From positions 270,001 through 302,000 of the forward strand of contig MGBH01000001.1 in NCBI GenBank assembly GCA_001790095.1: a DNA stretch of 32,000 bases. Direction: 5' to 3'. Position 1 is the first letter of the stretch; the number at the start of each line of letters is the position of its first letter. Positions 4,460-17,494 of the stretch are shown here, in pieces. Source of the stretch: Candidatus Saccharimonadota bacterium. Its GTDB lineage: Bacteria > Patescibacteriota > Microgenomatia > UBA1406 > GWC2-37-13. The position numbers were made by a program, and so were the translations under genes. The notes below the pieces were generated by a model. The model did not search any database. It saw only the letters and a list, made by a program, of their open reading frames with translations, and was not told the DNA's origin.

Positions 4460-5251
4460 ATGAAAAATGTAATAGAAGACGCAATTGATTTGGCAAATAA
4501 TATTCTTAAAACTTTGTCATCCAAAAAAGATTTAGTAATAGTAAATATCGCCATCAATAAGCCAAACACATTTATTGTCGAGGGATATCCAAAAATTCCA
4601 CTATCTTACGGCTATCAATATAGCGATACTCCCAAAGTGTTGGAACAGGATGGGTTGGTATTGGGAAAGACAGTTGGCTGGTGGTATGTAGGCATTATAA
4701 GCAAAAATTCACTTACGTTTAGGAATAGGCCGCAGGAGATAAACCTAGATGGGAACATAGACGAAGTTGTAGAAAGTATGAGGTTTATAGATAAGGAAAT
4801 GGCTATTGAGTACTATTTCAATGTTCAAGATGACGATATCGGGCCGAATAAATCAGAGCATAGGGCAATTTTGGTTAGTAGAAAAAAGTTAGAGCAGTTT
4901 GTAGGTTGGTATAAGGGTATCTCTCCACAATTTGATGAAAAAACAGGCGTTTTTTCTTATAGGGGTGTTAACGTTACGATCGGAGGAGAAAAATCGGTAC
5001 GAAGGTTTAAGTTATTGTTTGATAATTTAGGTGGTATGGTAACAAAAAGGCAATTTTATGAAGCTACAGGAAAACAAGACTACGTAATTATTAAGAATTC
5101 ACGGGGTGTTACCCAACTTCACGATAGTCTTGAAAAGGGATTTGGGAAAATAGTAGAAATTATTGAATCTGAACCAATTCTACGTAAATCTATTATCATG
5201 TTACAGAGAGATGGATTTGGTATGTTTGTAGACAAAAACGCTAAATTGTAA
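4460..5251 (+). CDS. Hypothetical protein (263 aa), element-encoded
   Basis: Long ORF with ATG start filling the gap divergent from the HTH-int operon. No motif recognised. Confidence 0.6.
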   Translation: MKNVIEDAIDLANNILKTLSSKKDLVIVNIAINKPNTFIVEGYPKIPLSYGYQYSDTPKVLEQDGLVLGKTVGWWYVGIISKNSLTFRNRPQEINLDGNIDEVVESMRFIDKEMAIEYYFNVQDDDIGPNKSEHRAILVSRKKLEQFVGWYKGISPQFDEKTGVFSYRGVNVTIGGEKSVRRFKLLFDNLGGMVTKRQFYEATGKQDYVIIKNSRGVTQLHDSLEKGFGKIVEIIESEPILRKSIIMLQRDGFGMFVDKNAKL

Positions 5252-5255
5252 AAAA

Positions 5256-5309
5256 CTCCTCAAAATAGCTCCAATAACTCCCCAATATTGATATTTTCAG
5301 CTCCCCAAT
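5256..5309 (+). repeat. Cluster of four CTCC(N0-2)..AAT direct repeats (iteron/operator-like)
   Basis: CTCCTCAAAAT (5256-5266), GCTCCAAT (5268-5275), CTCCCCAAT (5278-5286), GCTCCCCAAT (5300-5309). All on one strand, in a non-coding gap. Confidence 0.45.
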
Positions 5310-5333
5310 CGGATTTGTAACATTTTGGCTGAT

Positions 5334-5516
5334 ATGGGAAATCAGTCTACTAAATCCGTCGGCAATGATCCAAATATTCGTTTAATAACGAACACTGTCG
5401 ATGCGCTTCAAACACTTTATCGATCAGTCCGAGAAAGAAAAGAGCGAGAGATGATATCCGAGATGAATAAAAAAGAGATATTTAAAAAACAATATGAAAA
5501 AAGAATACAAATCTAA
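5334..5516 (+). CDS. Small hypothetical protein (ATG at 5334; the track starts at TTG 5325)
   Basis: Only an ORF filling the gap. Overlaps the next gene by 23 nt. No motif recognised. Confidence 0.3.
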   Translation: MGNQSTKSVGNDPNIRLITNTVDALQTLYRSVRERKEREMISEMNKKEIFKKQYEKRIQI

Positions 5517-5733
5517 CGATCTCTATCAAGCGGTTGCGCTTAAAACTGCAGGATTTCCCCTGATTCGATTAGAACGAAACTCTGGACGCTTCTTTGACTT
5601 CATTTTTGAAGATTCTGAAAATAAAGCAGAAGAAATTCTGACGCAATTTTGGGCTAAAAAACTACAGGTAGATGCTAAAGAATTTGTCGAGAATATAAAT
5701 GAGCTTAAGGCACGTGTTAATTCAGGAATATGA
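5494..5733 (+). CDS. DUF5659-like small protein (phage/plasmid-associated)
   Basis: NDLYQAVALKTAGFPLIRLERNSGRFFDFIFEDSENKAEEILTQFW follows the pattern I recall for DUF5659. ATGA stop/start overlap with the next gene. Confidence 0.65.
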   Translation: MKKEYKSNDLYQAVALKTAGFPLIRLERNSGRFFDFIFEDSENKAEEILTQFWAKKLQVDAKEFVENINELKARVNSGI

Positions 5734-6335
5734 AGAACAATATACCACCATATCAGAACAAAAAACAATTGAGACAAGCATACCAGAGATTGGGATCGAC
5801 TAGGAAGGTAGCTCGGTTATTCAATGTTTCAAATGGAACGATAATTTGTTGGATGCGAAAATTCCACATTTCTAGAGAACCCAAACTATATCTTTCTAAT
5901 AGCAATTCTGGAAGGGGTAGACTTTGTGAACTGTATATAGTGGAACATCCTTATTTCACAATGCATTTTAAAGATTTGGGGGAATTTGATGATAAATCCA
6001 GGTATGACGGATTGTGGTTTGGTGACAGAGTAAATATCAAAAGTTCGCACAGTAAAAAGAAATTTACATTTAGGATAAAGAAAATAAAACATGATGTCGT
6101 TTATTACATTTGTTGTATCTACATTGATGAAATAGATCCACTTATACCAACAGAAGTATTTATTATTCCAGCAAAGAATTCACCACGTACGTCTATCACT
6201 GCAACACTAGGATCGAAGAGTAAATATGCTCAATTTAGGTTAAGTCTCAAGAGAGGTAAGGAATTCACAATCAAATCGGAAAGGGAATATAACGAGAAAT
6301 TCAAAAAGAAATATAGATACCCGACGAAAAAATAA
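5730..6335 (+). CDS. HTH domain fused to a PD-(D/E)XK endonuclease-like domain (PDDEXK_5-like)
   Basis: N-terminal HTH LGSTRKVARLFNVSNGTIICWMRKF. C-terminal GRLCELYIV...YDGLWFGDRVNIKSS...VVYYICCIYIDE...VFIIPAK fits the E...D...(Q/N)xK pattern of the small PD-(D/E)XK fold. Confidence 0.6.
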   Translation: MKNNIPPYQNKKQLRQAYQRLGSTRKVARLFNVSNGTIICWMRKFHISREPKLYLSNSNSGRGRLCELYIVEHPYFTMHFKDLGEFDDKSRYDGLWFGDRVNIKSSHSKKKFTFRIKKIKHDVVYYICCIYIDEIDPLIPTEVFIIPAKNSPRTSITATLGSKSKYAQFRLSLKRGKEFTIKSEREYNEKFKKKYRYPTKK

Positions 6336-6358
6336 GTTCCCGCCCTCTTATATGTAAT

Positions 6359-7105
6359 ATGAAAATGAAAAATAATGACGGGGTAGGTTGGTGTCTAATA
6401 CCACCTGATATCGTATGCAGAACCGATCTGACCTCAAATGAAAAGTTAATTGTCGGTAGGATTCATGGCCTTTGTCTAAAGCATGGATATTGCTATGCTT
6501 CGAATCGTTGGCTCGCTAAACAATTTGGATTGTCTGCAGGTACAATTTCAAACATCATAAGTTCTCTTGTTGTAAAAGGGTTAATTCAAAGAGAAATAAT
6601 TCGTGATAAAAATATGCGCATAATCCAGCGCAAGTTATATACCCTTTCAATGCAACAGTGGATACCTACCCATTCCCAAATAGAAGAGAGTAGTAGAGAG
6701 AATAGTATTAGAGATAATGTTTATAATGATCCCTTTCCCAAAAGTAAAAGGGATTTAAAAAAAGATACAGACACAATAACAAACTATTTGAAGAATGAAC
6801 CTACAGCGGTAAGCGAAGCAATTCGATATTATCTATACAGATATAAAGAAAAAATTGGGAAAATTCACCCTAAGATATCCAGATCTCAATATCATATTGT
6901 GAGAAGCGGATTTGAAAATCCAACGTGGATACATTCAGATAGTCTCTCCTATGAGGATTATAAAAAAATAATTGATAACTGGTTTTGGGATGAAAATGTC
7001 GAAAGTGACTACAATATTATTCATTTTGCCTCGGGGGATACGATCTCATATCATGCTCTGAAAGAAAACCTTATTGATGAAGAAGACAAACCTTGGCCAG
7101 AATAA
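6359..7105 (+). CDS. Winged-helix DNA-binding protein, replication-initiator/DnaD-like N-terminus
   Basis: LTSNEKLIVGRIHGLCLKHGYCYASNRWLAKQFGLSAGTISNIISSLVVKGLIQRE is the HTH pattern seen in phage and plasmid replication proteins. The rest is unrecognised. Confidence 0.6.
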   Translation: MKMKNNDGVGWCLIPPDIVCRTDLTSNEKLIVGRIHGLCLKHGYCYASNRWLAKQFGLSAGTISNIISSLVVKGLIQREIIRDKNMRIIQRKLYTLSMQQWIPTHSQIEESSRENSIRDNVYNDPFPKSKRDLKKDTDTITNYLKNEPTAVSEAIRYYLYRYKEKIGKIHPKISRSQYHIVRSGFENPTWIHSDSLSYEDYKKIIDNWFWDENVESDYNIIHFASGDTISYHALKENLIDEEDKPWPE

Positions 7106-7254
7106 TAAAAATACAGACATATGATGATGCAAAGAAATAAGCAACTAATAACAGTCTTCTTTGCAATGATCGTGGTTAGAGTATTGATCTGGTGTTTCAA
7201 AGGACAATCCAACATTCAGTTCATTAATAGTTTTGATGATTGTGCAGCAGGGTA

Positions 7255-7283
7255 TTGACATATATCCGTTACGGATATATACT
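7255..7283 (+). promoter_or_regulatory. Near-consensus sigma70-type promoter (TTGACA-17-TATACT) with embedded perfect palindrome operator
   Basis: TTGACA at 7255-7260 and TATACT at 7278-7283. The 17-nt spacer lies within the palindrome TATATCCGT-T-ACGGATATA (7261-7279). The padR ATG at 7290 is 7 nt after the -10 element. Confidence 0.6.
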
Positions 7284-7289
7284 AATCTC

Positions 7290-7634
7290 ATGGACTACAA
7301 GCAAGAACCTCTTACTCCAGCAGTTTTTTATATTTTATTAGCCCTTAGCATTAAAGAGCGACACGGCTATGACATTATGAAACAAGTGGAGGCAGATTCA
7401 CACGGACAAGTAAAAATGGGCCCAGGAACGCTATACGGTTCTATCAAACGCATGTTGGATGTAGGACTGATTGTTGAGGTTGACAATATAAAGGATAGTA
7501 GACGGAAATTCTACAGCCTCACAAAAAAAGGACAGAAATACTTGTCTGCCGAAATAAAACGCTACTCCGAAGTTGTAAATCTAGCAAAAAACAGAAAACT
7601 ATTAGGAGTTGGCAATTTAGATTTTGGCGTATGA
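7290..7634 (+). CDS. PadR-family transcriptional regulator
   Basis: LTPAVFYILLALSIKERHGYDIMKQV...GPGTLYGSIKRMLDVGLI...RRKFYSLTKKG is the classic PadR winged helix. The start is moved to the internal ATG at 7290 because the track start (TTG 7233) lies upstream of the promoter. Confidence 0.88.
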   Translation: MDYKQEPLTPAVFYILLALSIKERHGYDIMKQVEADSHGQVKMGPGTLYGSIKRMLDVGLIVEVDNIKDSRRKFYSLTKKGQKYLSAEIKRYSEVVNLAKNRKLLGVGNLDFGV

Positions 7635-8476
7635 AAACCACTCTTTCTTTGTCAGAAAAAATCTACAAGACAATGTTAGAACTATACCCATTCAGGTATA
7701 AAGATGAATTTGGCCAAGAAATGATCCAGTTATTTCAGGATATGTATCACGACGCAAAAAACACTGATAACGACATGGAAGTGATTAACTTGTGGATGCG
7801 TATAATCCCCGACTACTTTATTAGTCTTACCAAAGAACATTTATCACACTTGAGAGGGGGTGATTATTATATGCACAAAAAATTTGACATGTTAGGTTTA
7901 TTTTTCTGGGTAGTAGCAGGAATTGCCGTATTTCCTGTTGTGTTGTTTATTAGCGTGAATCTGGTTGGTATTTTAGGATTAGGAAGCACCGAGGATGAAA
8001 GTGTATTGTTGTGGTTGATTTTTATTCCCTTGTTACTAATATCGCTAATTGGCTCTCAATGGCTAGTTTTACGTAAATACACAGACAGAGCAAAAGATTG
8101 GCTGATAAATACGGCTTCCGCTTGGGTTGTAATGATTGCCTCAACTTTCGTGATTATTGGGTTACTATTCAGAAATCTTACTATCACAGAACCACAGTCA
8201 TTAATGTTTATTCAAGCTATCCAAGCAATAGTGTATGGGGGAATATTAGGATGGTTTCAAAAAAAGGCACTGCATGGTTATGCAAACGCATGGCTTTTGA
8301 TTCCTGCAAACATAATCGGTGTAGCATTAATTTTTACAAGTATTGGAGAATCAATTAGTAGCACAATCGACATGATGCTGGTTGGATCTTTTCCTGCGTT
8401 ATTTACAGGCATAGCATTACTATTCGTCCTTAGTAAAAAACCAGTACACAGCAGTAAGCAGGGTGTTATGGCCTAA
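7631..8476 (+). CDS. Multi-pass membrane protein co-transcribed with PadR
   Basis: ATGA overlap with padR. The N-terminal cytoplasmic segment (LYPFRYKDEFGQEMIQLFQDMY) resembles the prefix region often found downstream of PadR genes. It is followed by at least 5 hydrophobic helices. Confidence 0.75.
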   Translation: MKTTLSLSEKIYKTMLELYPFRYKDEFGQEMIQLFQDMYHDAKNTDNDMEVINLWMRIIPDYFISLTKEHLSHLRGGDYYMHKKFDMLGLFFWVVAGIAVFPVVLFISVNLVGILGLGSTEDESVLLWLIFIPLLLISLIGSQWLVLRKYTDRAKDWLINTASAWVVMIASTFVIIGLLFRNLTITEPQSLMFIQAIQAIVYGGILGWFQKKALHGYANAWLLIPANIIGVALIFTSIGESISSTIDMMLVGSFPALFTGIALLFVLSKKPVHSSKQGVMA

Positions 8477-8481
8477 TTCAA

Positions 8482-8509
8482 AAGGCTGGCTTTCTAGAGA
8501 GTCAGCCTT
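8482..8509 (+). terminator. Hairpin after the PadR operon (weak intrinsic terminator candidate)
   Basis: AAGGCTG (8482-8488) pairs with CAGCCTT (8503-8509), 6 nt after the stop. The downstream T-tract is poor. Confidence 0.35.
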
Positions 8510-8629
8510 GTGTAGTTATTTCGTCTGTTATATAAAGAGCTTTTAGGGTTATACAAAGCTAATATCTCCTTGTTCGTGATCGTAACATTAATATAAGCAG
8601 TCAAGTGGTATAAGAGATGTATAATAAAG

Positions 8630-9175
8630 ATGATGAATAAAAAAGTCTTAGTGGTTGCTACTTTAGTGATTTTGGGTGTTATAGGAATAGCCTTTGTAAC
8701 ATTAAATAAGCCAAACAATGGAAAACAGTTGTCTACTGAGGAAAATTCAAACCCTATAGACAGTTGGGAACAACAAACCATCGAAGAAATAGGGTTAACT
8801 CTCAAAATGCCACCTGACACTACTTTTAGAAAAGAGATTGGTGATAATGATGGCAACATTCGTACTGTCGCTTTTTACATTGAAAAAGGCGATGAAAACA
8901 ATCCCGAATACCAACTCTACGCTTTGTACTTAGCTGATAAAGAGGGATCAACTCAAGATTTAGAAAAAGCAAAAACAGGCATGTCTTCTATAAAAGAGGC
9001 ATCAATTGACGGATACAGCGGAATAGAAGGAACTGCCAATACTAACGATCCCAAGAAACACTACTTAACTGTAGTCCTGAAAGACGGAAGACTCTTCTCT
9101 GTTTCTACCTATCCACCCCAACCTGAAAATAAAGAGTTAACAGACAAAATAATCCAAACGTTTAATTTTAGATAA
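8630..9175 (+). CDS. Exported or membrane-anchored hypothetical protein (181 aa)
   Basis: N-terminal hydrophobic helix MMNKKVLVVATLVILGVIGIAFVTL followed by a hydrophilic domain. No motif recognised. Confidence 0.7.
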   Translation: MMNKKVLVVATLVILGVIGIAFVTLNKPNNGKQLSTEENSNPIDSWEQQTIEEIGLTLKMPPDTTFRKEIGDNDGNIRTVAFYIEKGDENNPEYQLYALYLADKEGSTQDLEKAKTGMSSIKEASIDGYSGIEGTANTNDPKKHYLTVVLKDGRLFSVSTYPPQPENKELTDKIIQTFNFR

Positions 9176-9185
9176 ATCTAACTTA

Positions 9186-9332
9186 ATGAAAGTCATCGTA
9201 GGATTGTTGCTATTGATAGTATTATTAGCCTTTGAATATTGGTGGTTCAGAGAAACAATGCAATGCATGATCAACAGAACAAATTCAGGAATTGTAGTGG
9301 ACTGGGCAATGGTTAAAGACTGTAGTTATTAA
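9186..9332 (+). CDS. Possible 48-aa small membrane protein (not in the ORF track)
   Basis: ATG at 9186, TAA at 9330-9332. MKVIVGLLLLIVLLAFEYWWF is a clean TM helix. No other support. Confidence 0.25.
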   Translation: MKVIVGLLLLIVLLAFEYWWFRETMQCMINRTNSGIVVDWAMVKDCSY

Positions 9333-9365
9333 AATCATTCATGCCAAAAAACAGTAGGCTTCAGG

Positions 9366-9902
9366 CTACACCCCAAATCCCAAAGTGATACTAAACCCTG
9401 CCCTATCACCCGTAAAGTCAATATTTGCCATAATTCCTTCTCTTTTAATATCCACATATCGAAATTCAGCTATATTAGGTGTTGGGTTAACGATAGGCTG
9501 ATCGGCAAGAACGGCAGCAAGATTTACAATAAAGCCTAGCCACTTGTCATCGTTTTTACAAAAAACTGATGGTAGTCCGTATACATCGAGTAAGTTGATG
9601 AGTTCATTTTTAAACTCTGGTAAAAGGAGAAAATCAATGTTGCCATCCTTGGGATAGGTATCAATGGATTGATCTATCCTCATCATAATTTCCTTCATTG
9701 TTTTGGTGATATGATCCTTTTTAGTATGAACAACCCAATCTGCATGAAAGCGTACTAAAGAATGCCTTTCTGGTTTGCTTTCTTCTCTCTCCCTATCTAG
9801 TAGTTTTCTCAGCTCAACCATCAAATAAACCACTTCATGTTCCTCGTCCATGTTATGTTTATTAAGAAACGTTTTTAACTTTTCTACAATCTGAATTTTC
9901 AT
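9366..9902 (-). CDS. Hypothetical protein (178 aa), last gene of the seven-gene operon
   Basis: Starts 13 nt after the stop of the preceding gene on the same strand. No motif recognised. Confidence 0.7.
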   Translation of the reverse strand: MKIQIVEKLKTFLNKHNMDEEHEVVYLMVELRKLLDREREESKPERHSLVRFHADWVVHTKKDHITKTMKEIMMRIDQSIDTYPKDGNIDFLLLPEFKNELINLLDVYGLPSVFCKNDDKWLGFIVNLAAVLADQPIVNPTPNIAEFRYVDIKREGIMANIDFTGDRAGFSITLGFGV

Positions 9903-9915
9903 AGGTTAAATAGGA

Positions 9916-11340
9916 CTAATTCCATAATTCATTCTCATTTCTGAACCTTGGGAAATAAGCATCACTACTTTGTCTTTGTGAAGCCACACGATACATATAC
10001 TCAAGAATATCGAGGAAGCTAGAAAAAGTGAGATATTCCATCGTCAGTCGGGCATAAAGCATCGTATCAAGAGCAACGCTAAATGGGCCACGCCTAATAA
10101 TAAATAGTCCATGATCATCTGGTGAATGTGCATAGAGGCCATCTTTCACTGAAAACATCCTATCTTTATCTTTTTCAAAATCAGCAATTTGTTTATCTAG
10201 ATCAGTTTCGGTACGATCTTCAATTTCCCAATTGTGCTGTTTTAGAATCTCCTTGAGTATGGTTACGTTTAACGTGCATTTAACCAAGTAATAACCAGAC
10301 ATCAAATACATGCAATCTTTAGCTGAGAATGGAAAGATTGAATACGGAGGAGCTGATCTAACAAAATTGCCTTTTTCGTCACTATAAAAAGTGTCCCAAT
10401 TGCTATGAATCAGTACCAAATCTTTTGTTTTTTCTTTAGGTGAGAGTTTCTTTAGTTCCTCAACATCAACAGGTTTCTTGTTTTCATTAATTGCTCTAAA
10501 ATTAGTTACTTCTATTTGTATGCAGTTGTCAAAATTTTCCGATACCACCATTTTCTTCTCTGATTTACGAAATAGCCGCTTGATTCTGCTAATGTAGGTA
10601 CGTGGCTCCAGTTCCATTACTCTCGTGTCAATATCAATTCCACCTATTCTAGCTTTGTTTGCTATCGCAATTCTTTGAAGTTCCAATAGCCTTTTTGCCT
10701 GATTGCTTATCTTTGCCTTACCTTGAACCCGTTTAAGGGTGAACATATTTTTAATATCTTTACCATATTTTTTGATTTCATGAATAAAAGCAACACCATC
10801 TTTGATCTCGGTTAAATCGCCTACCCTAAGAAAATGAGTTAAGTCATTAAGTATCACCAAACTATCAAGTGATTTAGAAATCCTATGCGCCCACATAAAC
10901 TCGCTTCTGAATTCTTTACTATTCACATCCACACTACCAGCACCAAATCCTCTGGAAGAGGAGTTTAGGAATGTGCGGTTATAGTTCAAGTTTCTCCATG
11001 CAATACCATCACATATCGTTCTGGAGATTCGTATTAATTGCTCATGGATGAGAATGTGATCTTCTAGTCCTCTGAGCTCTTTTTCTTCTTTAGGAGTTAA
11101 CTGGCTTTTGTCGTGTAGTTTTTTGGCCTTCTCTCGTCCTTCCCTAAGCTTTTCCCAAAACAACGTTTCTGCCTGCGCCAATTTGTATTGCATTGCAAGC
11201 ATTACGTCTTTCTTGTGCTTATGTCGCTTGCTCCTTGTTGCTCTTAGCACCTTTTCAAAGTAGCCAACCCACTCTTTGTAGTAGGAGCTGGCTAGAATAG
11301 CAGAGATTTTAATCGCATAGTCTTTTTCAAGCATGTACAT
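9916..11340 (-). CDS. Hypothetical 474-aa protein with NERD / PD-(D/E)xK-like nuclease motif
   Basis: aa 161-192 LVILNDLTHFLRVGDLTEIKDGVAFIHEIKKYG gives D175...E188-x-K190 in a beta-strand-like context (nt 10765-10860). No P-loop seen. Confidence 0.7.
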   Translation of the reverse strand: MYMLEKDYAIKISAILASSYYKEWVGYFEKVLRATRSKRHKHKKDVMLAMQYKLAQAETLFWEKLREGREKAKKLHDKSQLTPKEEKELRGLEDHILIHEQLIRISRTICDGIAWRNLNYNRTFLNSSSRGFGAGSVDVNSKEFRSEFMWAHRISKSLDSLVILNDLTHFLRVGDLTEIKDGVAFIHEIKKYGKDIKNMFTLKRVQGKAKISNQAKRLLELQRIAIANKARIGGIDIDTRVMELEPRTYISRIKRLFRKSEKKMVVSENFDNCIQIEVTNFRAINENKKPVDVEELKKLSPKEKTKDLVLIHSNWDTFYSDEKGNFVRSAPPYSIFPFSAKDCMYLMSGYYLVKCTLNVTILKEILKQHNWEIEDRTETDLDKQIADFEKDKDRMFSVKDGLYAHSPDDHGLFIIRRGPFSVALDTMLYARLTMEYLTFSSFLDILEYMYRVASQRQSSDAYFPRFRNENELWN

Positions 11341-11366
11341 ATATCTGAGTTTCGATCATCAATAAT

Positions 11367-12131
11367 TCATTTAACAAGTTGTTTTTTAAGTTTTTCTAAG
11401 ATTTTTATGTCATTTTCTGTTGCAACCTTCAGCTTTCTCATCTTCTCTAATAATGCAACAGCTTCTTTGTGGTTACCCTCCTTCTTGGCTTGCTTTGCTA
11501 ATGCCCGATATGCACTGCCCACAATTCCCAATGGCGCAGGTGGAGGACTATCTTTCCATTCTGGTGAAATTGCACACCTATCGCTTATGTTTAAGCCGAT
11601 CTCTGCACTTTTCAAATAGTTACCACGTTTGTAGAAGAGTTCAGCGTAAGAACACAAACATGGTTCGTATTCGTCAGTACTCTCAAAAACAAACTTTAAA
11701 ACTTTCTCTGCACGAACTAAATCCCTGATTGGAGCATCATCAACTAACATATGTCCAAGTTCGCCAGCTATATCTATTTGATCCAGATACTCAGCATTGT
11801 GCCGTTTTTCTAAGGGTAGTTGTACAGGAAGAGTGTTTGTGGATAATGAAAAAGCTTTATCGAAGCAAAATACCGCTTTATCCAGATATTCTTTCCTTTC
11901 ATCTCCACGAATATGCCAGGCAGTAAAGTTTCTCCAGGCTATGCCCATCCAATATGCTATTTTTGGGTTCTTAGTGTTCTGAAACTCATTTTCAATATCG
12001 CCAATAACCTTTAACATATTTTCTTTATTGAAATCTTGTTCATCCCCAAAGCCCATGCTTGTAATACGCATAAGTGCGGTTATAGCCTCGTTATCATTTG
12101 AATAATTTGATCTACTGAAGAAATTGAACAT
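11367..12131 (-). CDS. All-helical, TPR/Sel1-like repeat protein (254 aa)
   Basis: Repeated helix-pair segments: AYWMGIAWRNFTAW...YLDKAVFCFDKAF, YAELFYKRGNYLKSAEIGLN, GSAYRALAKQAKKEGNHKEAVALLEKM. Its start is 1 nt after the upstream stop. Confidence 0.65.
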   Translation of the reverse strand: MFNFFSRSNYSNDNEAITALMRITSMGFGDEQDFNKENMLKVIGDIENEFQNTKNPKIAYWMGIAWRNFTAWHIRGDERKEYLDKAVFCFDKAFSLSTNTLPVQLPLEKRHNAEYLDQIDIAGELGHMLVDDAPIRDLVRAEKVLKFVFESTDEYEPCLCSYAELFYKRGNYLKSAEIGLNISDRCAISPEWKDSPPPAPLGIVGSAYRALAKQAKKEGNHKEAVALLEKMRKLKVATENDIKILEKLKKQLVK

Positions 12132-12132
12132 A

Positions 12133-13281
12133 TTAGAGTTTGCTTAACAACGAGGCGTGGAACTCGTATGTTTTTGCAAACTCCGTGAAGGCATCAAAGT
12201 TGCTGAACATAAAAGACTCCTCAAGGCCACCCTCTGATTCGTAAGTCATATCACCATACTTAACAATGGGAATTTGATAATTGCCTTTGAATCTTTTATC
12301 CATAGAACCATCTTTATTAGCCTTCTTCCAAGTATGTTGAATAATCTCCGTATCCTTTGGTACACTTTCTTCTTCAACATAACCAGAAAGTTTCATTGTT
12401 GTCTTTACATCTTTAAGATCGAAGATTCCAAACTCTTGATTGTCTTTGAACAGAAGCAAGAATGTAGGAAATAAAAACACATCAGGGCCATTCGCATTGG
12501 GTAGAAATAAATGAGGTAAATCGCTTTTTACAAATTCAATTTCTCGTTCAGTTTTAGATATTGGAGTCCTTTTAGTGGCGGTTTGGGCTACAGTGCGTGC
12601 TTTGGCTCTGTCTACATTTTCTGCATAGGTAATATCCCAAATTTTTTCGCTGCTCATTAACTCATTGAATGTGTCAATACAGTTGAGCCAACTTTTCTCA
12701 AGTTGAGATTTATCAGCAAAAGTCAATTTAACAAAAGTTTCTAATACTTGCTTCTCTAGTTCTTTAACAACACTCTGTTGAATTTTTCTTGAATTGGCAA
12801 TCCCTTTATAGAAGAATCCTACTATAACGAGATAACTTCCAAAATGGATTGTGGAGAGTAAAAACAACTTTGTTTTAGCTGAATTGAGTTTTTTCAGTAA
12901 CTCAATACGTTGATTGTATATATCTGTAATTTGTTGACGTAGCACTTGAAAGTTTTTACTAGTAACTGTTAAGGCTTTGCTTGAGCTTCTGATAATATTT
13001 CCTGTATTTGATATTTCTATACCAGTTGGGTGTTCGTTATTCATAGGTGGATGTTTAACAGTATTAGAACTGTTATTTTTATTATTAGGAATTTTTAATA
13101 GATCGTCTACACTAACCGATGTTTTGTTATATACCTTATTGTAGAGTGCTTTCTTTGGATTCGTTAGTATTCCCATTCCTCTGGGAGCTTTCAAACCCAA
13201 GCTATGTCTTACAACTCGTTTCCAAGAGGTTCTAGCTGCAATTCTACGTTTTAATGATGGTGTTCTTATTCCAAATTTCAT
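12133..13281 (-). CDS. Single-pass membrane protein with a highly basic N-terminus and an unknown C-terminal domain of about 220 aa
   Basis: N-terminus MKFGIRTPSLKRRIAARTSWKRVVRHSLGLKAPRGMGILTNPKKALYNKVYNKT. TM helix at about aa 139-158 (LFLLSTIHFGSYLVIVGFFY). C-terminal domain unrecognised. Confidence 0.7.
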   Translation of the reverse strand: MKFGIRTPSLKRRIAARTSWKRVVRHSLGLKAPRGMGILTNPKKALYNKVYNKTSVSVDDLLKIPNNKNNSSNTVKHPPMNNEHPTGIEISNTGNIIRSSSKALTVTSKNFQVLRQQITDIYNQRIELLKKLNSAKTKLFLLSTIHFGSYLVIVGFFYKGIANSRKIQQSVVKELEKQVLETFVKLTFADKSQLEKSWLNCIDTFNELMSSEKIWDITYAENVDRAKARTVAQTATKRTPISKTEREIEFVKSDLPHLFLPNANGPDVFLFPTFLLLFKDNQEFGIFDLKDVKTTMKLSGYVEEESVPKDTEIIQHTWKKANKDGSMDKRFKGNYQIPIVKYGDMTYESEGGLEESFMFSNFDAFTEFAKTYEFHASLLSKL

Positions 13282-13302
13282 AATTGTTTTTAGCTTTAGT
13301 TA

Positions 13303-14082
13303 TTATTGAATACTGCACTGTCGCTGATAAAATTCATCTTGTTCTATCATCTTTCTAATTTCATTTTTTCTGTAGTTGTCAATGCAATTCTTGTTATTTT
13401 TCCCTGAGCCATACAAGCATTCATTTCTAACCCCATCTAAATTCAGGCTACTTCTAATAGATTCTAGTATCGTTAATTGAGGGTGTAACACACTATCATT
13501 TTCTATCCTGTATTCGATAGACTTCCATTCTTCAGAGTTCATTATTCCAAAAAACTTCCACTGTGCGTAAAAAGCTTCTGTCTCTTTATCAATACAAGAA
13601 AGCTCATCACTTCCATTGAGAGATTCTAGATATTGTTGTACGTGAGTAATTTCGTGGACAAGAAGTAATGCTGTAGTCAAGTCGTCCGTTGAACTATAAT
13701 CAGAATTAACAGTTATCGGAAAATAATCGCTTTTTATTTCAGGACTATTAAATACAAAATAGCCTTCTACACCAGAAGAACCTCGGGTATCATCTTCTAT
13801 AATTCTGATACAGTTAACTAATCGAGAAGGGAAAAAATACCAAGAATCTTCACCTTCACCACTATCTTCCCATAAACTGTATTTTTGTGCTATTAGACTC
13901 AAGGCTCGATCATATTGTGGTTCATTTTTTTGGCGTGTTGTTCTCGTACAATCTACAATTTCTGGTGTCTGTGTTAAATTTGAAGTATCTGAAACAACAG
14001 GAGACGTCTCTTTATAAAAGATTGAAGCAACCCAAACTAGTAAAACAAAAACTAAACCAAGAATAATATAACTTTTTTTCAT
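13303..14082 (-). CDS. Exported or anchored putative zinc metallopeptidase (HExxH)
   Basis: N-terminal hydrophobic helix IILGLVFVLLVWVASIFY. HEITH at aa 143-147 with downstream Glu residues (KETEAF, aa 166-171). Six Cys after the helix, consistent with an extracytoplasmic location. Confidence 0.7.
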   Translation of the reverse strand: MKKSYIILGLVFVLLVWVASIFYKETSPVVSDTSNLTQTPEIVDCTRTTRQKNEPQYDRALSLIAQKYSLWEDSGEGEDSWYFFPSRLVNCIRIIEDDTRGSSGVEGYFVFNSPEIKSDYFPITVNSDYSSTDDLTTALLLVHEITHVQQYLESLNGSDELSCIDKETEAFYAQWKFFGIMNSEEWKSIEYRIENDSVLHPQLTILESIRSSLNLDGVRNECLYGSGKNNKNCIDNYRKNEIRKMIEQDEFYQRQCSIQ

Positions 14083-14090
14083 AATTCTCT

Positions 14091-14714
14091 TTAGATATTT
14101 AATACTTTCTTTGACAACATGTCACCATATTTCCGATACATTTCCTCGGGCATTGAGAGTTTTAGCTTGTTCTCTATAGACGTGTTGTCGATAGTATCTT
14201 TTAATACTGAACTTTTTAAAAAATAGTCTCCCTCATGCGAAGAAGTACCAAGTAGACTGATAGTGCCAACCATAAACTTTGCAAAATTCTTCTTGTTTAA
14301 TACATCTTTTGACTTCACTATTACTGGCTCATGGATTTTAGCCTTATCAGATTTTGTATATGAGTCATAAGCAGTTAGGAGATTGTCTACAAAAGAATTT
14401 GGATCGAACATGTGCTTAGTTGTTGAAATAAATTGATCAAGTACCCCAAGTGCTATCAATAACTTTTCATCAGAGGATATTTTTGATTTTTTAACACCAT
14501 TCAAAACATCTATAAGCCCCATTGTAAGAACTTCTTTTGTAATAAAATCCTCTAATTCAAACTTATCAGGAAACAATTTATGCAAAATATTTCCGCTTTT
14601 TGGACGCTTCTTATATCCATAAGCACGCCAAACCTCATCATCCAACAATGGCCTCATTGCTGTACTTGCTAGGTATTCAACTAGATCGTTAATATCGGTT
14701 GTTTTATGTTCCAT
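14091..14714 (-). CDS. Hypothetical protein (208 aa from the internal ATG)
   Basis: The track ORF extends to 14792 and would overlap the upstream HTH gene by 77 nt. The ATG at 14712-14714 (MEHKTTD) lies 1 nt after the HTH stop, so the start was trimmed. No motif recognised. Confidence 0.65.
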   Translation of the reverse strand: MEHKTTDINDLVEYLASTAMRPLLDDEVWRAYGYKKRPKSGNILHKLFPDKFELEDFITKEVLTMGLIDVLNGVKKSKISSDEKLLIALGVLDQFISTTKHMFDPNSFVDNLLTAYDSYTKSDKAKIHEPVIVKSKDVLNKKNFAKFMVGTISLLGTSSHEGDYFLKSSVLKDTIDNTSIENKLKLSMPEEMYRKYGDMLSKKVLNI

Positions 14715-14715
14715 A

Positions 14716-14922
14716 TTATTTTTTTGTCCCACTCTTACTACGAGAGATATATGCCTGGATATCTTGTTTACGATAACGCCTATCTCCGACACCTCGCCGA
14801 GTGCCTACACGTACGGCTTTTAAGATTCCTTGTCGATCCCATCTCCGCAATGTTTGAGCGTTTACATTTAAGATTTTCGCTGTTTGCTCAATTGTTAACA
14901 GCTCTTCAATTTGTGGGTTCAT
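14716..14922 (-). CDS. HTH_17 / excisionase-family DNA-binding protein, paralogue of 4193-4402, first gene of the operon
   Basis: LTIEQTAKILNVNAQTLRRWDRQGILKAVRVGTRRGVGDRRYRKQDI aligns residue by residue with the first HTH. Start chosen at ATG 14922 (MNPQIEE), giving 68 aa against 69 aa for the paralogue. The track start at 14970 is less likely. Confidence 0.75.
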   Translation of the reverse strand: MNPQIEELLTIEQTAKILNVNAQTLRRWDRQGILKAVRVGTRRGVGDRRYRKQDIQAYISRSKSGTKK

Positions 14923-14924
14923 AG

Positions 14925-14951
14925 TAATTGTCTTTAATTGTACTAAATTGC
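14925..14951. promoter_or_regulatory. Three 10-bp-phased direct repeats TAATTGT / TAATTGT / AAATTGC immediately upstream of the operon's first gene
   Basis: Copies at 14925-14931, 14935-14941 and 14945-14951, with exact 10-nt periodicity. TAAATTGC recurs at 14991-14998. Confidence 0.45.
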
Positions 14952-15037
14952 TTGAGAATTTGCGATACAATAATGTAGAATATTAATAGTTAAATTGCCT
15001 AAACTTTGTGGTTTCCCCATAAGGCATGGCAAAAAAT

Positions 15038-15146
15038 CGGTTCAACGCAGTAAGCCCTTCATGGTGTTACGTTGAACCGTCGTGTGCCGAAAGGTATACG
15101 GGTGGCGCAAGCTACCAGCCGTGAGGGGCTTTTTGGTTCACACGGC
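15038..15146 (+). ncRNA. Structured GC-enriched 5' leader (candidate riboswitch/attenuator) of the zinc-ribbon gene
   Basis: 10-bp perfect hairpin 15038-15047/15070-15079. GAAA-tetraloop hairpin 15081-15100. GCAA-tetraloop hairpin 15101-15116. Competing 14-bp helix 15052-15065/15118-15131 followed by a U-run. The G.U pairs make the fold plus-strand specific. SD AAGGAGG at 15153-15159. Confidence 0.5.
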
Positions 15147-15166
15147 ATCTTTAAGGAGGTGAACAA

Positions 15167-15478
15167 ATGACAACTATTAAATGTCCATATTGCGCAGAAG
15201 AGATCCAAGTAGACGCCAAGAAGTGCAAACACTGTGGGGAGTGGTTAAATATTCCCAATGGCAATAACATTTTCAGTCCTTCAACTAGTTCAGTTGATGC
15301 AAGATCGGTAAGCAAAGGTATCAAAGACGCCGAATATAGCAAGTTTGTAATGGGTGTCTTGGGAGTAGTTGATCTATTTATTGCCGTTTGCGTTGGACTG
15401 TTTACCCATTGGATAGTTGGTTTAATCGTATTTGTCGGAATCGGAATGTGGATCGGTAATCGACACTATCAAGAATGA
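15167..15478 (+). CDS. Zinc-ribbon domain membrane protein (103 aa)
   Basis: CPYC...CKHC zinc-ribbon at the N-terminus and two C-terminal TM helices. Strong SD AAGGAGG 7 nt upstream of the ATG. Confidence 0.75.
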   Translation: MTTIKCPYCAEEIQVDAKKCKHCGEWLNIPNGNNIFSPSTSSVDARSVSKGIKDAEYSKFVMGVLGVVDLFIAVCVGLFTHWIVGLIVFVGIGMWIGNRHYQE

Positions 15479-15838
15479 GCATTATGATAAATAATCCTTA
15501 CTATCAATTCTTCTCCAATGTGTGAATGTGTAGACTCATAACTGCACATTTAGCCTTGATTGGAAAGACTACATAGACTATATATAGTAGACGTTTAACA
15601 TCCCAACACATATTTATTTGCTATAACTAGGGATATTAATCGGGATCAGCTATACTATTGGAAGATTCCGTTCAATTTAGATTGAGCTAAAATAAGTAAA
15701 ATCGAGGGGGCGGAGTAGTGAAATTGAAAATGCAGGGTAGAGGGTTAATAATCTAGTGTCATACTAGATAGGCATATGCGGTACCCTATATGCTAGCATT
15801 TCAAAAAATGCCACTGGCCTAATTGATACAAATATCCT

Positions 15839-17494
15839 TCATATGTTTTTGACCATGTAAGTATCTATGAGATTATATCCAAATTTCTCGTAATACTTTC
15901 TTGTTCCAACTCCCGCAATTATGGCAATTTTGTTTGAACCTTGTTTTGTAGATAATTTTTCAGCCTCTTTTAATAAACGAATGCCAAAATGGTGATGTTG
16001 AATCGTATTCTTTTCTTTTTTTCCAATGGGAACGACTTGTCCGTATACATGTAGCTCTCGTATCAGAGCTGCTCCAGCTAAACTCTTAGCTAAAGCAAAC
16101 TGTGTATGGGGGATAAACAGTCGGATGAATCCTAGCGAATGTTTGTTATCGTCTGTAAATTCTAAAAAAAATTCCTTACCATTAGACACATTATATGAGA
16201 TAGTGTGCAGGTATGGTTTTCCAACAATTTTCAGATCTTTGATTTCACGACACCTGATGCAGCTGCATATTTTATTATTGTCATGCATTTTTTTTTGAAT
16301 AATCTCCCGAAGATTAGGAGCAAATTGCTTAATTTGCATTGCATCGGTTGTAATGTCTCGTGTCAACCTTCCAATCCGCACCCAGGGAGGAACTACCTCG
16401 GATTTGAATTTTATGATTATCTCAATCAATTCATCCAGGGAGTAGGGTTTGTAGGTTTCATTTTTAAACCATTCAAAAAGTTTTGTATGTGTCGTAATTG
16501 TGGTCGGATAAAGTTTGAGATGGTCAGGTTTAAACCAAGGATTACTAAAAATCTCTTTCATCAATTGAAGGTCAAGTGAGGGGGTTGTCCCGGGAAGATT
16601 GGGCATAAGGTGATATCCTATTTTAAGGCCATAGCTTCTCAAGAGAGAGGTTGCTTTCATTACTTGCTTGACTGTATGGTTGCGTTTAATAAGAAAGTAT
16701 ATCTTATTGCTTGGCATCTGTACTCCTATTTCAACATGTGTAACGCCAAGAGTGCGCAGGTACACAAGCTCTTTATCGTTGATGTAGTCGGGTCGAGTCT
16801 CAATATTAATACCTATGATACGAGATTTTGCCGTTTCGTTTTCTTTCTGAGAGTCAAATAAAGTCTTTACTGTTTTAACGTAATCAATCTGACCACTTTT
16901 TAAATATTTTTCAATGTCTACGTTGCACGCATCAAACACGCGCCTCACAAACCATCTCCGGTATTGTTTTTTATAGAAAGAAAACGTTCCTCCTTTTATG
17001 ATAATTTCAACTTTGTCGATTGAGTGACCAGAAAGATAGAACATGACAAGTCTTTGTAGTGTTTGTTTGAATGGATCAAAATGATGTCTTATAGCTCGCA
17101 TGACAGCGGGTTCATCGGAAAAATAACTTTTTGGCATACCTGGTTCATTTGGACAGTAAACACATGAAAATGGACAACCAGTACCCTTTGTAAATAAAGT
17201 AAGGGGAACGATTCCAGATAGAGATCTGGTTTTCGTTTTTACCAAAAACTGTTTTATCTGTTTGATAAATGAGGAAGAGAATCTACTTTGATGACGAATA
17301 AGTATGAAGTTTAGCCACCAAGCAGAGGGTTTTATAGCTTTAAAGTCCTTTTGTAGTTTGAGCGAATCCATAAGCAGCCGGTTCATACTTTTTTGATCAA
17401 GGGGCGCTTTTTTTTCAAACCCTTGTTCAAGTAGTTGAAGCAGCTTGATAAGTGAATCCTCAAGTTGTGTTGGAAAATTAGCGGGGTAAAACAT
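15839..17494 (-). CDS. elp3: Elp3-family radical SAM / GNAT tRNA-modification enzyme (tRNA U34 carboxymethylation type)
   Basis: Radical SAM cluster motif CPFSCVYCP. C-terminal GNAT block ELHVYGQVVPIG...QHHHFGIRLLKEAEKL...IAIIAGVGTRKYYEKFGY, characteristic of Elp3. 551 aa. Confidence 0.9.
   Translation of the reverse strand: MFYPANFPTQLEDSLIKLLQLLEQGFEKKAPLDQKSMNRLLMDSLKLQKDFKAIKPSAWWLNFILIRHQSRFSSSFIKQIKQFLVKTKTRSLSGIVPLTLFTKGTGCPFSCVYCPNEPGMPKSYFSDEPAVMRAIRHHFDPFKQTLQRLVMFYLSGHSIDKVEIIIKGGTFSFYKKQYRRWFVRRVFDACNVDIEKYLKSGQIDYVKTVKTLFDSQKENETAKSRIIGINIETRPDYINDKELVYLRTLGVTHVEIGVQMPSNKIYFLIKRNHTVKQVMKATSLLRSYGLKIGYHLMPNLPGTTPSLDLQLMKEIFSNPWFKPDHLKLYPTTITTHTKLFEWFKNETYKPYSLDELIEIIIKFKSEVVPPWVRIGRLTRDITTDAMQIKQFAPNLREIIQKKMHDNNKICSCIRCREIKDLKIVGKPYLHTISYNVSNGKEFFLEFTDDNKHSLGFIRLFIPHTQFALAKSLAGAALIRELHVYGQVVPIGKKEKNTIQHHHFGIRLLKEAEKLSTKQGSNKIAIIAGVGTRKYYEKFGYNLIDTYMVKNI

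Follow-up and report, generated by a model that had tools for sequence, protein, structure and literature searches.

A seven-gene array in a serine-recombinase element of Candidatus Roizmanbacteria as a probable mosaic of exchanged modules that includes a candidate nuclease family

Introduction

Defence islands and accessory 'moron' arrays, which are carried by integrative elements and prophages, are variable strings of small, mutually unrelated modules beside an integrase, and the gene content of sister elements turns over. Both properties are shared by the array described here, which lies in a 32,000-nt stretch of DNA (the window) from Candidatus Roizmanbacteria (CPR/Microgenomates). As in defence islands, relatives of its modules adjoin R-M, SIR2-HerA, Mrr, DUF4238, AbiU2 and AlbA_2 genes, and relatives of the fourth gene are found at prophage ends. 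The array differs from these systems in that its seven proteins (g1 to g7) belong to no family described in PADLOC-DB v2, in its CPR host, in gaps of only 1-26 nt, and in the ORF-precise exchange of modules that have no promoters or terminators of their own. Integron cassettes are likewise promoter-less single-ORF units in one orientation, individually exchanged and placed behind an upstream promoter. In contrast to integrons, the array has no IntI tyrosine integrase, its junctions of 1-26 nt are too short for attC, and a large serine integrase moves the entire element.

Individual members of the array also have described counterparts. The g6 protein resembles the PD-(D/E)xK superfamily in that its D...ExK is invariant and occupies the canonical places in strands 2 and 3, with an acidic residue in the helix before them and a conserved Q in the helix after them. 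It further resembles stand-alone type IV or Mrr-like enzymes as a single gene with no obligatory partner and with defence-island company. Unlike known superfamily members, it gave no significant sequence or structure match, including to NERD, Mrr_cat, Cas4/RecB, Vsr and Shedu DUF4263, and it has a unique 130-residue helical N-domain (CDGIAWR) and 170-residue C-domain (SNWDTF...R...PPYS). The g4 protein has its C-terminal domain in common with the DUF4236 prophage proteins (PF14020; PHROG 17982 and relatives; 25-44% identity), which carry a similarly placed short basic N-module and occur in accessory regions near integrases. It differs from them in that the DUF4236 model misses the N-module of the window protein, and in that g4 is paired in CPR with the TPR-like g5. 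To our knowledge, no biological context has previously been assigned to the LOOT RNA motif (RF03000). Hits to the whole motif that clearly exceeded the gathering score were present in the window and in the related loci L003, L033, L013 and L104; here the motif belongs to integrative elements of CPR bacteria, where it diverges from an HTH_17 gene and lies upstream of genes for small membrane proteins.

Results

The integrase of the element is a large serine recombinase of 522 aa (2598-4166, minus strand) with Resolvase, Recombinase and Zn_ribbon_recom domains. DNA homology between the window and the sister element L003 extended from 2488 to 15811 with differing cargo, which placed the element at approximately 2530-15815 (∼13.3 kb). 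The first-pass annotation had described the array as cargo of an integrated element, and the recombinase together with this homology in other hosts bore that out. The element is inserted downstream of secA and is bounded by the 3' end of this gene on one side and by the 3' end of an Elp3-like radical-SAM gene on the other. No flanking repeats were found, as expected for serine integrases. The element contained no capsid, terminase, conjugation or P-loop genes and no recognisable replication or structural genes. In the sister elements L003, L004 and L005, which occupy the same secA site, the recombinases were 87-89% identical to that of the window, and the adjacent SecA in L003 and L005 was just 48-56% identical. 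A second HTH_17 gene beside the recombinase (4193-4402, minus strand; 69 aa) corresponds to a Pfam HTH_17 gene call in L001 at 16939-17148. It is a paralogue of g1 (65% identity across 48 aa) and a candidate excision factor or regulator.

The seven minus-strand ORFs of the array (9366-14970) were all found at the coordinates given beforehand, and intergenic gaps of 1, 8, 21, 1, 26 and 13 nt were reproduced when recomputed from ATG starts. This spacing suggests that the seven genes are co-transcribed. Promoter and terminator scans of the array performed no better than on shuffled sequence, and no repeated sequence was found at the junctions of 1-26 nt. None of the seven proteins matched a P-loop, helicase, MTase, RT, TIR or SIR2 family in Pfam, PADLOC-DB v2, NCBIfam or PHROGs. 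Two library matches were generic or uninformative, namely g1 to the small HTH of PADLOC mad1 and g4 to phrog_17982. The proteins had been called unrecognisable and, apart from the HTH of g1, Pfam, PADLOC and NCBIfam indeed named nothing among them; the PADLOC-DB v2 check that had been proposed matched no described defence family. All sequence features reported earlier (HTH_17, HEITH with six Cys, a basic N-terminus and D175/E188/K190) were present.

Among ∼60 related loci the genes occurred independently, and DNA homology broke at ORF edges. The complete set of seven, for which a search for conserved order in other genomes had been proposed, was found in the window's own contig alone, and the only recurring block was LOOT-sRNA/g1-g2-g4-g5; many of the contigs are short, and the absence of a neighbour there sometimes carries limited weight. 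With a probability of roughly 70%, we consider the seven ORFs to be the accessory array of the ∼13-kb serine-recombinase element and a mosaic of four or more modules that have been exchanged independently.

The first gene, g1 (14716-14922, minus strand), encodes a MerR-type, excisionase-like HTH_17 DNA binder of 68 aa from its ATG; the listed ORF extends to 14970 from a TTG start. It matched Pfam HTH_17 with E=3.7e-12 and the NCBIfam excisionase domain TIGR01764 with 30.8 bits (cut-off 28.8). The protein was 92% identical in L003 and 75% identical in L033, and g2 was always the next gene. The g2 protein (14091-14714, minus strand; 207 aa from the ATG at 14714) had no match in the four HMM libraries and no hydrophobic segment. 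It was present in L003, L004/L036 and L033, each time between g1 and g4, and was never seen apart from them. Divergent from g1 lies a LOOT sRNA (Rfam RF03000; 14996-15116, plus strand) that matched over its full length of 1-121 with 89.7 bits (gathering score 46.4), and the same arrangement was found in L003 and L033 (94 bits each). DNA homology between the window and L033 at 14077-15045 covered g2, g1, the intergenic region and the 5' part of LOOT; in a three-way alignment the conserved columns reached the 3' end of LOOT, and compensatory changes were present in its long hairpin. Judged from these alignments, LOOT is co-mobile with g1-g2. A 181-aa exported protein, sec181 (8630-9175, plus strand), is convergent with the operon and travels with the g1-g5 block; it was 79% identical directly after g5 in L033 and 55% identical in L003.

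The g4 protein (12133-13281, minus strand; 382 aa) has three parts: a conserved, very basic N-module (1-70), a long helical hairpin whose tip is the sole hydrophobic segment (139-158), and a beta-rich C-terminal domain (about 184-382). It matched phrog_17982, of unknown function, with E=6e-44, and its N-module matched four other PHROGs. Among 258 homologues, the distant ones carried Pfam DUF4236 at the N-terminal position, and the N-module was elsewhere fused to TerB_N or TPR or swapped for a Zn-ribbon. The AF2 model had a pLDDT of 77, and Foldseek gave only weak PH-domain-like matches. The C-terminal domain was carried by 59 IMG/VR viral contigs, in several of which the gene adjoins a tyrosine integrase at the prophage end. 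The downstream gene g5 (11367-12131, minus strand; 254 aa, helical) had 32 homologues and is the usual partner of the CPR subtype of g4. Its reported TPR likeness held insofar as TPR_2 matches exist, but all were sub-threshold (E=9.5e-4, 19.6 bits, gathering cut-off 27). The close packing of g4 and g5 and the recurrence of g1-g2-g4-g5 as a block indicate that some of the genes are not independent of one another.

It is possible, though unlikely, that LOOT, g1, g2, g4 and g5 form a four-protein, RNA-regulated and membrane-associated conflict module, with g3, g6 and g7 as unrelated later insertions. The block, including sec181, was 75-88% identical at the amino acid level on the L033 backbone, whose serine recombinase is just 25% identical, and it was also present in L003 and L004; the genes in every locus that holds it are, however, close relatives (≥65% aa identity), which is compatible with common ancestry. 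On three element backbones (the L001 family, L033 and L034) g5 starts 1-2 nt past g4, but g4 is far more widespread without g2 or g5: it lacked g5 or g6 in L024, L027 and the 59 viral contigs, and in L005 g5 was precisely absent and g4 directly preceded g6. Conversely, g5 occurred without g4 in L035, L103 and L104, at 42-49% identity. LOOT, a g5-like gene and a DUF4236-TPR membrane protein lie side by side in L104, against which stands the presence of LOOT without g1-g5 in L013. The proteins P0175 and P0178 fuse the g4 N-module to TPR domains, but these TPR parts are not detectably homologous to g5.

Two further genes behaved as single-gene cassettes. The g3 protein (13303-14082, minus strand; 259 aa) is membrane-anchored or exported, with a hydrophobic N-terminal helix (4-22), HEITH at 143 and Cys at 45, 91, 163, 222, 233 and 256. 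Its best family signal was the putative metallopeptidase DUF6782 (E=0.021, sub-threshold). The gene was precisely missing between g2 and g4 in L033, L003 and L004, where window positions 13291-14076 had no counterpart, and no relatives were found in the other fetched loci, IMG/VR, GenBank phages or PDB. By this comparison g3 was inserted precisely as a single gene, and among the loci and collections searched only this element carries it. The g7 protein (9366-9902, minus strand; 178 aa) had no family match, and its homology was limited to window positions 9367-9903. It follows g6 in L004/L036 and L005/L037/L038, and it was found with no g6 within 8 kb in L039-L042, directly after HsdS-SIR2-HerA in L042 and after an HNH protein in L039.

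The g6 protein (9916-11340, minus strand; 474 aa) consists of an N-terminal helical domain, a central PD-(D/E)xK-type core and a C-terminal alpha/beta domain. The D...ExK motif noted by the first-pass annotation proved genuine: D175, E188 and K190 were invariant in 51 homologues down to 20% identity, as were Q51, D111, G112, W115, R116, D166, T168, Q214 and P332, and E147 was near-invariant. The suggested likeness to NERD found no counterpart in Pfam even at E≤1. The AF2 model (pLDDT 92) had the core order alpha-beta-beta-beta-alpha-beta, formed by helix 142-158, strands 161-164, 176-180 and 183-190, helix 213-227 and strand 229-232; D175 opens strand 2 and ExK lies within strand 3. The family is large and unannotated (1,462 cluster representatives at E≤1e-3), with no match in Pfam, PADLOC, PDB or BFVD. 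When the 22 genome loci with g6 were searched by tblastn with all window proteins, only three (L003, L004 and L005) held any other operon gene. In L002, g6 was 97% identical at the amino acid and 95.4% at the DNA level among unrelated neighbours; the homology was confined to window positions 9916-11363 and ended at the ORF edges, as did g6 homology to 10 other loci. By these breakpoints g6 moves as a single-gene cassette, and the invariant motif and the modelled topology suggest that it is probably a stand-alone nuclease.

It is rather improbable that the genes, and notably g6, instead belong to the core of the mobile element and serve excision directionality, replication or end processing, or the morphogenesis of an unrecognised CPR virus. 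The g6 gene is strongly linked to large serine recombinases: 12 of the 22 loci have one no more than 10 kb away, and five of those within 0.7 kb; in L010, L012, L016 and L017, tRNA genes adjoin compact SerRec-(HTH)-g6 units. The known directionality factors of serine integrases form a diverse group with some enzyme-like members, which counts in favour of this explanation, as does the lack of recognisable replication or structural genes noted above. However, in L006, L008 and L010 g6 remained 69-76% identical while the adjoining recombinase fell to 24-25%, a divergence that speaks against the two as co-evolving partners. In L002 no recombinase lies within 10 kb of g6, and distant g6 homologues in Dehalococcoidia are solitary amid housekeeping genes rather than in islands. 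No match to g6 was found in IMG/VR, GenBank phages or plasmids, and relatives of g4 occupy the accessory end of tailed prophages near the integrase, outside the structural modules.

Neighbours of g6 elsewhere included SLFN_AlbA_2, an N6_N4 MTase with a LexA-like gene, type I R-M, DUF5677/PADLOC DitA (E=8e-14), DUF4238, HEPN AbiU2 and Trypsin_2, and in L033 g1 adjoins Mrr_cat. The relatives thus keep defence-island or prophage-end company, in ∼10 neighbourhoods that are anecdotal rather than a statistical enrichment.

Discussion

That the seven genes are one undescribed sensor/scaffold/effector defence system working as a unit is highly improbable and was largely refuted by the co-occurrence test: the narrow gaps without evident internal terminators, the position as cargo beside an integrase with a plausible effector (g6) and envelope components, and the g2-g4-g5-g6-g7 order retained in L004/L036 speak for it, but the complete set was seen in no second contig, partial sets occurred only in sister elements, so that the common gene order reflects recent ancestry, g4, g5, g6 and g7 were each found alone or among unrelated neighbours, and g3 and g5 are precise presence/absence polymorphisms. 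Of the earlier interpretation, the cargo status, the g6 motif and the conflict- or defence-type company of the relatives stand; the single seven-gene system does not.

In the mosaic that we favour, the modules are packed head to tail and would probably be read from shared upstream transcription, and each may serve a conflict or accessory role of its own instead of contributing a part to a single machine. The first module would comprise the LOOT sRNA divergent from g1, together with g2, g4 and g5; g1 and LOOT would regulate this block. The g4 protein is predicted to be membrane-associated, with its promiscuous basic N-module, hydrophobic hairpin and C-terminal beta domain, and with or without g5 it would work as a membrane factor for prophage-type exclusion or an abortive-infection-like response. 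The exported HExxH protein g3 would be the second module, acquired as a single-gene insertion, the PD-(D/E)xK-type nuclease g6 the third and g7 the fourth.

The g6 protein would act alone as a Mg2+-dependent DNA endonuclease via E147/D175/E188/K190, and the helical and C-terminal domains on either side of the core would recognise the target or keep the enzyme autoinhibited. As g6 usually occurs without a cognate methyltransferase, a classical type II activity is less plausible than one that is modification-dependent (type IV-like) or gated in some other way. This family of probable DNA-cutting enzymes is the most interesting piece of the array.

Organization of the seven-gene array

With coordinates taken from the ATG starts, seven minus-strand ORFs were confirmed, separated by recomputed gaps of 1, 8, 21, 1, 26 and 13 nt. 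In order of reading they are g1 (14716-14922; 68 aa from its ATG, in an ORF listed to 14970 from a TTG), g2 (14091-14714; 207 aa), g3 (13303-14082; 259 aa), g4 (12133-13281; 382 aa), g5 (11367-12131; 254 aa), g6 (9916-11340; 474 aa) and g7 (9366-9902; 178 aa). Promoter and terminator scans of the array performed no better than scans of shuffled sequence, so that we infer a single g1-g7 transcript from spacing only. Near gap-free packing in these genomes is no evidence of a functional unit.

The features ascribed to the proteins by the first-pass annotation were present, namely the HTH_17 domain of g1, the HEITH motif and six cysteines of g3, the basic N-terminus of g4 and the D175...E188-x-K190 motif of g6. 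Its description of the set as unrecognizable was also borne out: Pfam, PADLOC-DB v2, NCBIfam and PHROGs returned just the HTH and PHROGs without known function.

The LOOT RNA and a recurring four-gene block

A full-length LOOT RNA (Rfam RF03000; 89.7 bits, gathering score 46.4) was located at 14996-15116 on the plus strand, divergent from g1, and the ∼200-nt region upstream of g1 was conserved. The long hairpin of the RNA showed compensatory changes. The same divergent arrangement with g1 was found in two related loci, L003 (1935-2058) and L033 (5830-5953). LOOT also occurred in L013 (5280-5399), a serine-recombinase element that carries g6 without g1-g5, and in L104 (5498-5621), where it directly precedes genes for a 91-aa membrane protein, a g5-like product and a DUF4236-TPR membrane protein. 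It was not found in the other 20 loci scanned, and viral contigs yielded no match in a pattern scan. The genes that follow LOOT on its own strand encode small membrane proteins (ZnR103, a 105-aa protein and the 91-aa protein) or an Mrr nuclease. To our knowledge, the LOOT motif has no assigned biological context; a literature search on DUF4236, LOOT and CPR serine-recombinase elements found nothing informative.

In L033, the block g1-g2-g4-g5 and the convergent gene for a 181-aa exported protein were 75-88% identical to those of the window, with a recombinase just 25% identical and an Mrr-type nuclease next door. This recurrence on an unrelated backbone favors the existence, inside the array, of a module of four genes and one small RNA; the recurrence is, however, confined to close relatives, and such a module is an unlikely reading, though the best placed of the alternatives. 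A broader proposal joins two parts. Under it, g6 would be the founder of a family of PD-(D/E)xK defence nucleases that is widespread (∼1,500 clusters at 50% identity) and without structural precedent; its members, self-gated and acting alone, would hop as ORF-precise single-gene cassettes between the serine-integrase elements of CPR and Chloroflexota, and LOOT with g1-g2-g4-g5 would form a new exclusion or abortive-infection module, anchored in the membrane and regulated by RNA. That both parts hold together is doubtful; if they do, the module would give LOOT its first biological context.

The element and its linkage to g6

After secA (22-2529) come a gene for a large serine recombinase (2598-4166), in which Resolvase, Recombinase and Zn-ribbon domains were found, as in large-serine-recombinase elements, and then an HTH_17 gene (4193-4402). 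Small genes, including DUF5659, HTH_50 and HTH_36 genes, a PadR-plus-membrane-protein pair and the gene of the exported 181-aa protein, lie between this HTH_17 gene and the array, and a Zn-ribbon membrane protein and then an Elp3-like radical-SAM gene lie beyond it. The PadR regulator shares a 4-nt overlap with the gene of a 281-aa multi-pass membrane protein (7233-8476, plus strand, inside the element); a PadR gene also neighbors a g4 homologue in Saccharibacteria (L027).

Sister elements were identified in two MAGs, one from Microgenomates (L003) and one from Daviesbacteria (L005), whose recombinases, beside secA, were 87-89% identical to that of the window, with SecA only 48-56% identical. 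DNA homology between the window and L003 spanned 2488-15811. Taken together, these values describe an element of ∼13.3 kb whose integration site follows secA and which has passed from host to host among distinct lineages. The same element was seen after secA in Roizmanbacteria, in Daviesbacteria (L005/L037/L038) and in another Microgenomates MAG (L003). The sequence comparisons indicate that the element was transferred recently between classes and that its insertion site is conserved. No att repeats were found at the element ends; the lack of flanking repeats is expected for serine integrases. The element had no capsid, terminase, conjugation or P-loop genes, and an inovirus-like prophage was rejected since neither a Zot/pI-type ATPase nor any P-loop gene was present.

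Several further observations were made in and around these loci. A glmS ribozyme/riboswitch (RF00234, 71 bits), an ordinary housekeeping feature, lies at 23086-23274 on the minus strand, where it follows the 3' end of one gene (23332-24150) and precedes the start of another (21218-23017). In two related elements, a group I intron directly adjoins the serine recombinase gene (L008, 2691-2923; L033, 2007-2212, the latter close to tRNA genes); these may be intron-containing tRNA genes that serve as integration sites. Several TPA records with CPR-type g6 loci (L002, L004, L008, L009, L014, L015) are labeled 'uncultured Gammaproteobacteria' or 'Pseudomonadales', which is probably a taxonomic mislabel of Patescibacteria bins.

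Of the 22 g6 loci, 12 had a large serine recombinase no more than 10 kb away, and in five of these (L007, L010, L012, L016, L017) the distance was at most 0.7 kb; several of the loci with a recombinase close to g6 adjoin tRNA genes. Compact units of recombinase and g6, with or without a small ORF, were seen beside tRNA genes in L017/L032 (8666-11338), L016 (8186-11398), L010 (8030-11416) and L012 (17-2549); in a Saccharimonas MAG such a unit is closely flanked by a type I R-M operon containing two hsdS genes on one side and by a tRNA on the other. The linkage and the compact units would suit genes that serve the core of the element, as directionality factor, in replication or in a virion. Against this, g6 was 69-76% identical in loci where the recombinase was only 24-25% identical (L006, L008, L010), which shows that g6 moves between backbones and does not co-evolve with the integrase; there are also solitary g6 homologues, and relatives of g4 hold prophage positions. 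Core functions are thus improbable, and g6 as a recombination directionality factor was rejected, since its identity does not track that of the recombinase.

Relatives of the array genes keep defence-island or prophage-end company. The immediate neighbors of g6 in other loci included SLFN_AlbA_2, an N6_N4 methyltransferase with a LexA-like repressor, a type I R-M system with a recombinase, a DUF5677 protein matching PADLOC DitA at E=8e-14, a DUF4238 protein matching PADLOC DUF4238-Pers, HEPN AbiU2 and a trypsin-like protease. Distant homologues in Dehalococcoidia stood alone among housekeeping genes.

The array is probably a mosaic

Co-occurrence was analyzed by tblastn of every window protein against the 22 g6 loci and by a neighbor search for each gene. 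Other array genes were found in only three of these loci: L003 and L004 carried g2-g4-g5-g6, with g7 in L004 only, and L005 carried g4-g6-g7. L003 and L005 are the sister elements; on L004, a contig of just 5.7 kb, no recombinase lies in range. In L002, g6 at 97% amino acid identity stood among entirely different genes. g4 occurred without g5 or g6 in L024 and L027, and g5 followed g4 in L033 and L034 and not in L035, L103 or L104. Among eight metagenome loci with g7, four (L039-L042) had no g6 in range; in L042 it came directly after HsdS-SIR2-HerA and in L039 after an HNH protein.

The DNA homology was broken up in the same gene-wise manner. Window 9916-11363, holding only g6, matched L002 at 95.4% identity; 9367-9903, only g7, matched L039-L043; 12118-13293, only g4, matched L005; 11389-13290, with g4 and g5, matched L033 and L034; and 14077-15045, with g2, g1 and LOOT, matched L033. 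The breakpoints fell within a few to ∼25 nt of ORF boundaries (9366-14082 against L002, L005, L033, L034 and L039-L043). g3 (13291-14076) was a precise insertion missing in L033, L003 and L004, and g5 was precisely missing in L005; single genes (g3, g5, g6 and g7) have been gained or lost as precise cassettes. The array differs from an integron cassette array: IntI or another tyrosine integrase is missing from the element, and the junctions (1-26 nt) contained no attC-like sites, for which they are too short, and no shared repeat.

Independent of the integrase, neither the gene set nor its order was conserved across unrelated backbones, and only g1-g2-g4-g5 recurred. Together with the LOOT placement, this block makes the array best described as the modules LOOT/g1-g2 plus g4-g5, g3, g6 and g7, which would act separately; g1 and the divergent LOOT would control the block. 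We therefore regard the array as a mosaic and not one system, with a probability of about 0.7-0.8. The single seven-gene conflict system proposed in the first-pass annotation fails this co-occurrence analysis, as its genes are found separately and DNA homology ends at ORF edges, and it is now very improbable; the proposal of a new defence architecture with seven genes is not borne out. What the element carries is a defence-island-like cargo array, a known kind, built from families that have not been described, in a phylum that has received little study. Gene families of this unknown sort are common on CPR mobile elements.

Relatives of g4

g4 had more than 258 homologues and matched phrog_17982, a PHROG with no assigned function, at E=6e-44. 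The protein has a strongly basic N-terminus and one hydrophobic stretch (139-158). Its N-module (residues 1-70) was ∼60-90% identical across proteins with differing C-terminal parts (TerB_N, TPR or the g4 C-domain), and a Zn-ribbon stood in its place in the homologue P0120. Clear transmembrane hairpins followed the N-module in the fusion proteins. The AF2 model of g4 (pLDDT 77) showed a long helical hairpin (109-181) with the hydrophobic stretch at its tip and a beta-rich C-domain ending in a helix. The protein had been described as a single-pass membrane protein; it may actually be a hairpin that dips into the membrane and leaves both of its ends cytoplasmic. Foldseek returned weak PH-domain-like matches only (E 0.02-0.1), a possible likeness of the model that we treat as a lead and not a finding.

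The window protein did not match Pfam DUF4236 (PF14020); this domain was found at the same position in distant full-length g4 homologues (P0150, P0154-P0168) and in a prophage protein (L073, 7887-9092; E=3e-21). Relatives of g4 were present on 59 IMG/VR contigs. The C-terminal domain was common in prophages, often adjoining a tyrosine integrase at the prophage end (L050, L073, L083), and in Paenibacillus phages the accessory region contained the N-module as a 67-aa ORF of its own. In a Rosetta-stone test, g5 showed no homology to the TPR portions of P0175 and P0178, two proteins in which the N-module is fused. Paired with g5 in CPR, g4 would act at the membrane in the way of prophage exclusion or abortive-infection factors.

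The small array genes

g1 matched Pfam HTH_17 (PF12728; E=3.7e-12, 46.8 bits, cut-off 27) and NCBIfam TIGR01764 (30.8 bits, cut-off 28.8), both above the curated thresholds, which places it among the HTH_17 or excisionase-type proteins. It was also the sole match of the seven proteins in PADLOC-DB v2.0.0 (small HTH 'mad1', E=1.9e-12), which by sequence appears to be generic HTH similarity; g2-g7 had zero matches at E≤1, and no signature protein of any anti-phage system described in that database was found. The HTH_17 gene adjoining the recombinase (4193-4402, minus) is a paralogue of g1, which heads the cargo array near the opposite end of the element (14716-14922, minus). The two proteins were 65% identical over 48 aa, and either could serve as an excision factor.

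g3 has a hydrophobic helix (4-22), HEITH at 143 and six cysteines, and would be a putative exported HExxH enzyme. Its best family match was a weak one to DUF6782 (E=0.021, 14.5 bits, Pfam cut-off 27), and no relative was found in any other fetched locus, IMG/VR, GenBank phages or PDB sequences. For g5, proposed to be TPR-like, TPR matches were present, all below threshold (TPR_2, 19.6 bits, Pfam cut-off 27, with one repeat at 207-234); some of its 32 homologues carried precomputed PF07719 matches or the source name 'TPR repeat protein'.

g6 belongs to a large family with a PD-(D/E)xK-type motif

A word-index search returned 61 homologues of g6, and 22 g6 loci were found in GTDB species genomes; the taxa were Microgenomates classes, Falkowbacteria, Saccharibacteria and Dehalococcoidia/Chloroflexota. 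An exhaustive profile search gave the family 1,462 cluster representatives with E≤1e-3, of which 720 reached E≤1e-10; among the 150 best listed, almost all were full-length (420-480 aa). No match was found in IMG/VR, GenBank phages or PLSDB plasmids. Ten distant members had no Pfam domain save one N-terminal Vsr fragment; this was in P0321 (521 aa), where residues 1-36 match the Vsr mismatch endonuclease (E=2e-6) ahead of a g6-type body, a join that may be either genuine or an artefact of gene calling.

Alignments of 24 and 51 homologues showed invariant Q51, D111, G112, W115, R116, D166, T168, D175, E188, K190, Q214 and P332, of which D111, G112, W115 and R116 fall in the motif CDGIAWR; near-invariant residues included E147, R217, Q222, D316, R328 and Y333. 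The D...ExK-type motif (D175/E188/K190) proved genuine, as it was kept in all 51 sequences down to 20% identity, as in PD-(D/E)xK catalytic sites. In the AF2 model (pLDDT 92, pTM 0.92), a helix (142-158) is followed by three strands (161-164, 176-180, 183-190), a second helix (213-227) and a fourth strand (229-232). D175 opens the second strand, E188-x-K190 lies in the third, and E147 and Q214 are in the first and second helix, respectively. The alpha-beta-beta-beta-alpha-beta order is a property of the PD-(D/E)xK superfamily core, and g6 agrees with it by order of secondary structure only. There was no significant profile or structural similarity to a known PD-(D/E)xK member: the PDB profile search was empty, and hhalign of the g6 profile against an Mrr_cat nuclease gave a probability of 1%. 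The suggested relation to NERD (PF08378) was not recovered either, hmmscan at E≤1 giving only a spurious PB2_cap-binding match.

g6 would be a metal-dependent DNA endonuclease working alone, and the chance that it is a defence or conflict nuclease is somewhat short of even. No methyltransferase is encoded in the element; for this reason g6 as a type II restriction enzyme was rejected, and a modification-dependent or otherwise gated g6 is more plausible than a classical restriction enzyme.

Implications for Patescibacteria

Few defence systems are recognized in CPR/Patescibacteria, and little has been described of their mobile elements. This locus shows movement of small elements with a serine integrase between Microgenomates classes, with fast-turning arrays of unknown genes that elsewhere adjoin classical defence genes. 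The g6 family, which is large, unnamed and confidently modeled and has no structural neighbor, is a genuine lead when taken together with the genomic context of LOOT. The leads to follow up are this unnamed nuclease-like family, the DUF4236-type family of prophage-end proteins and a genomic home for the LOOT RNA motif.
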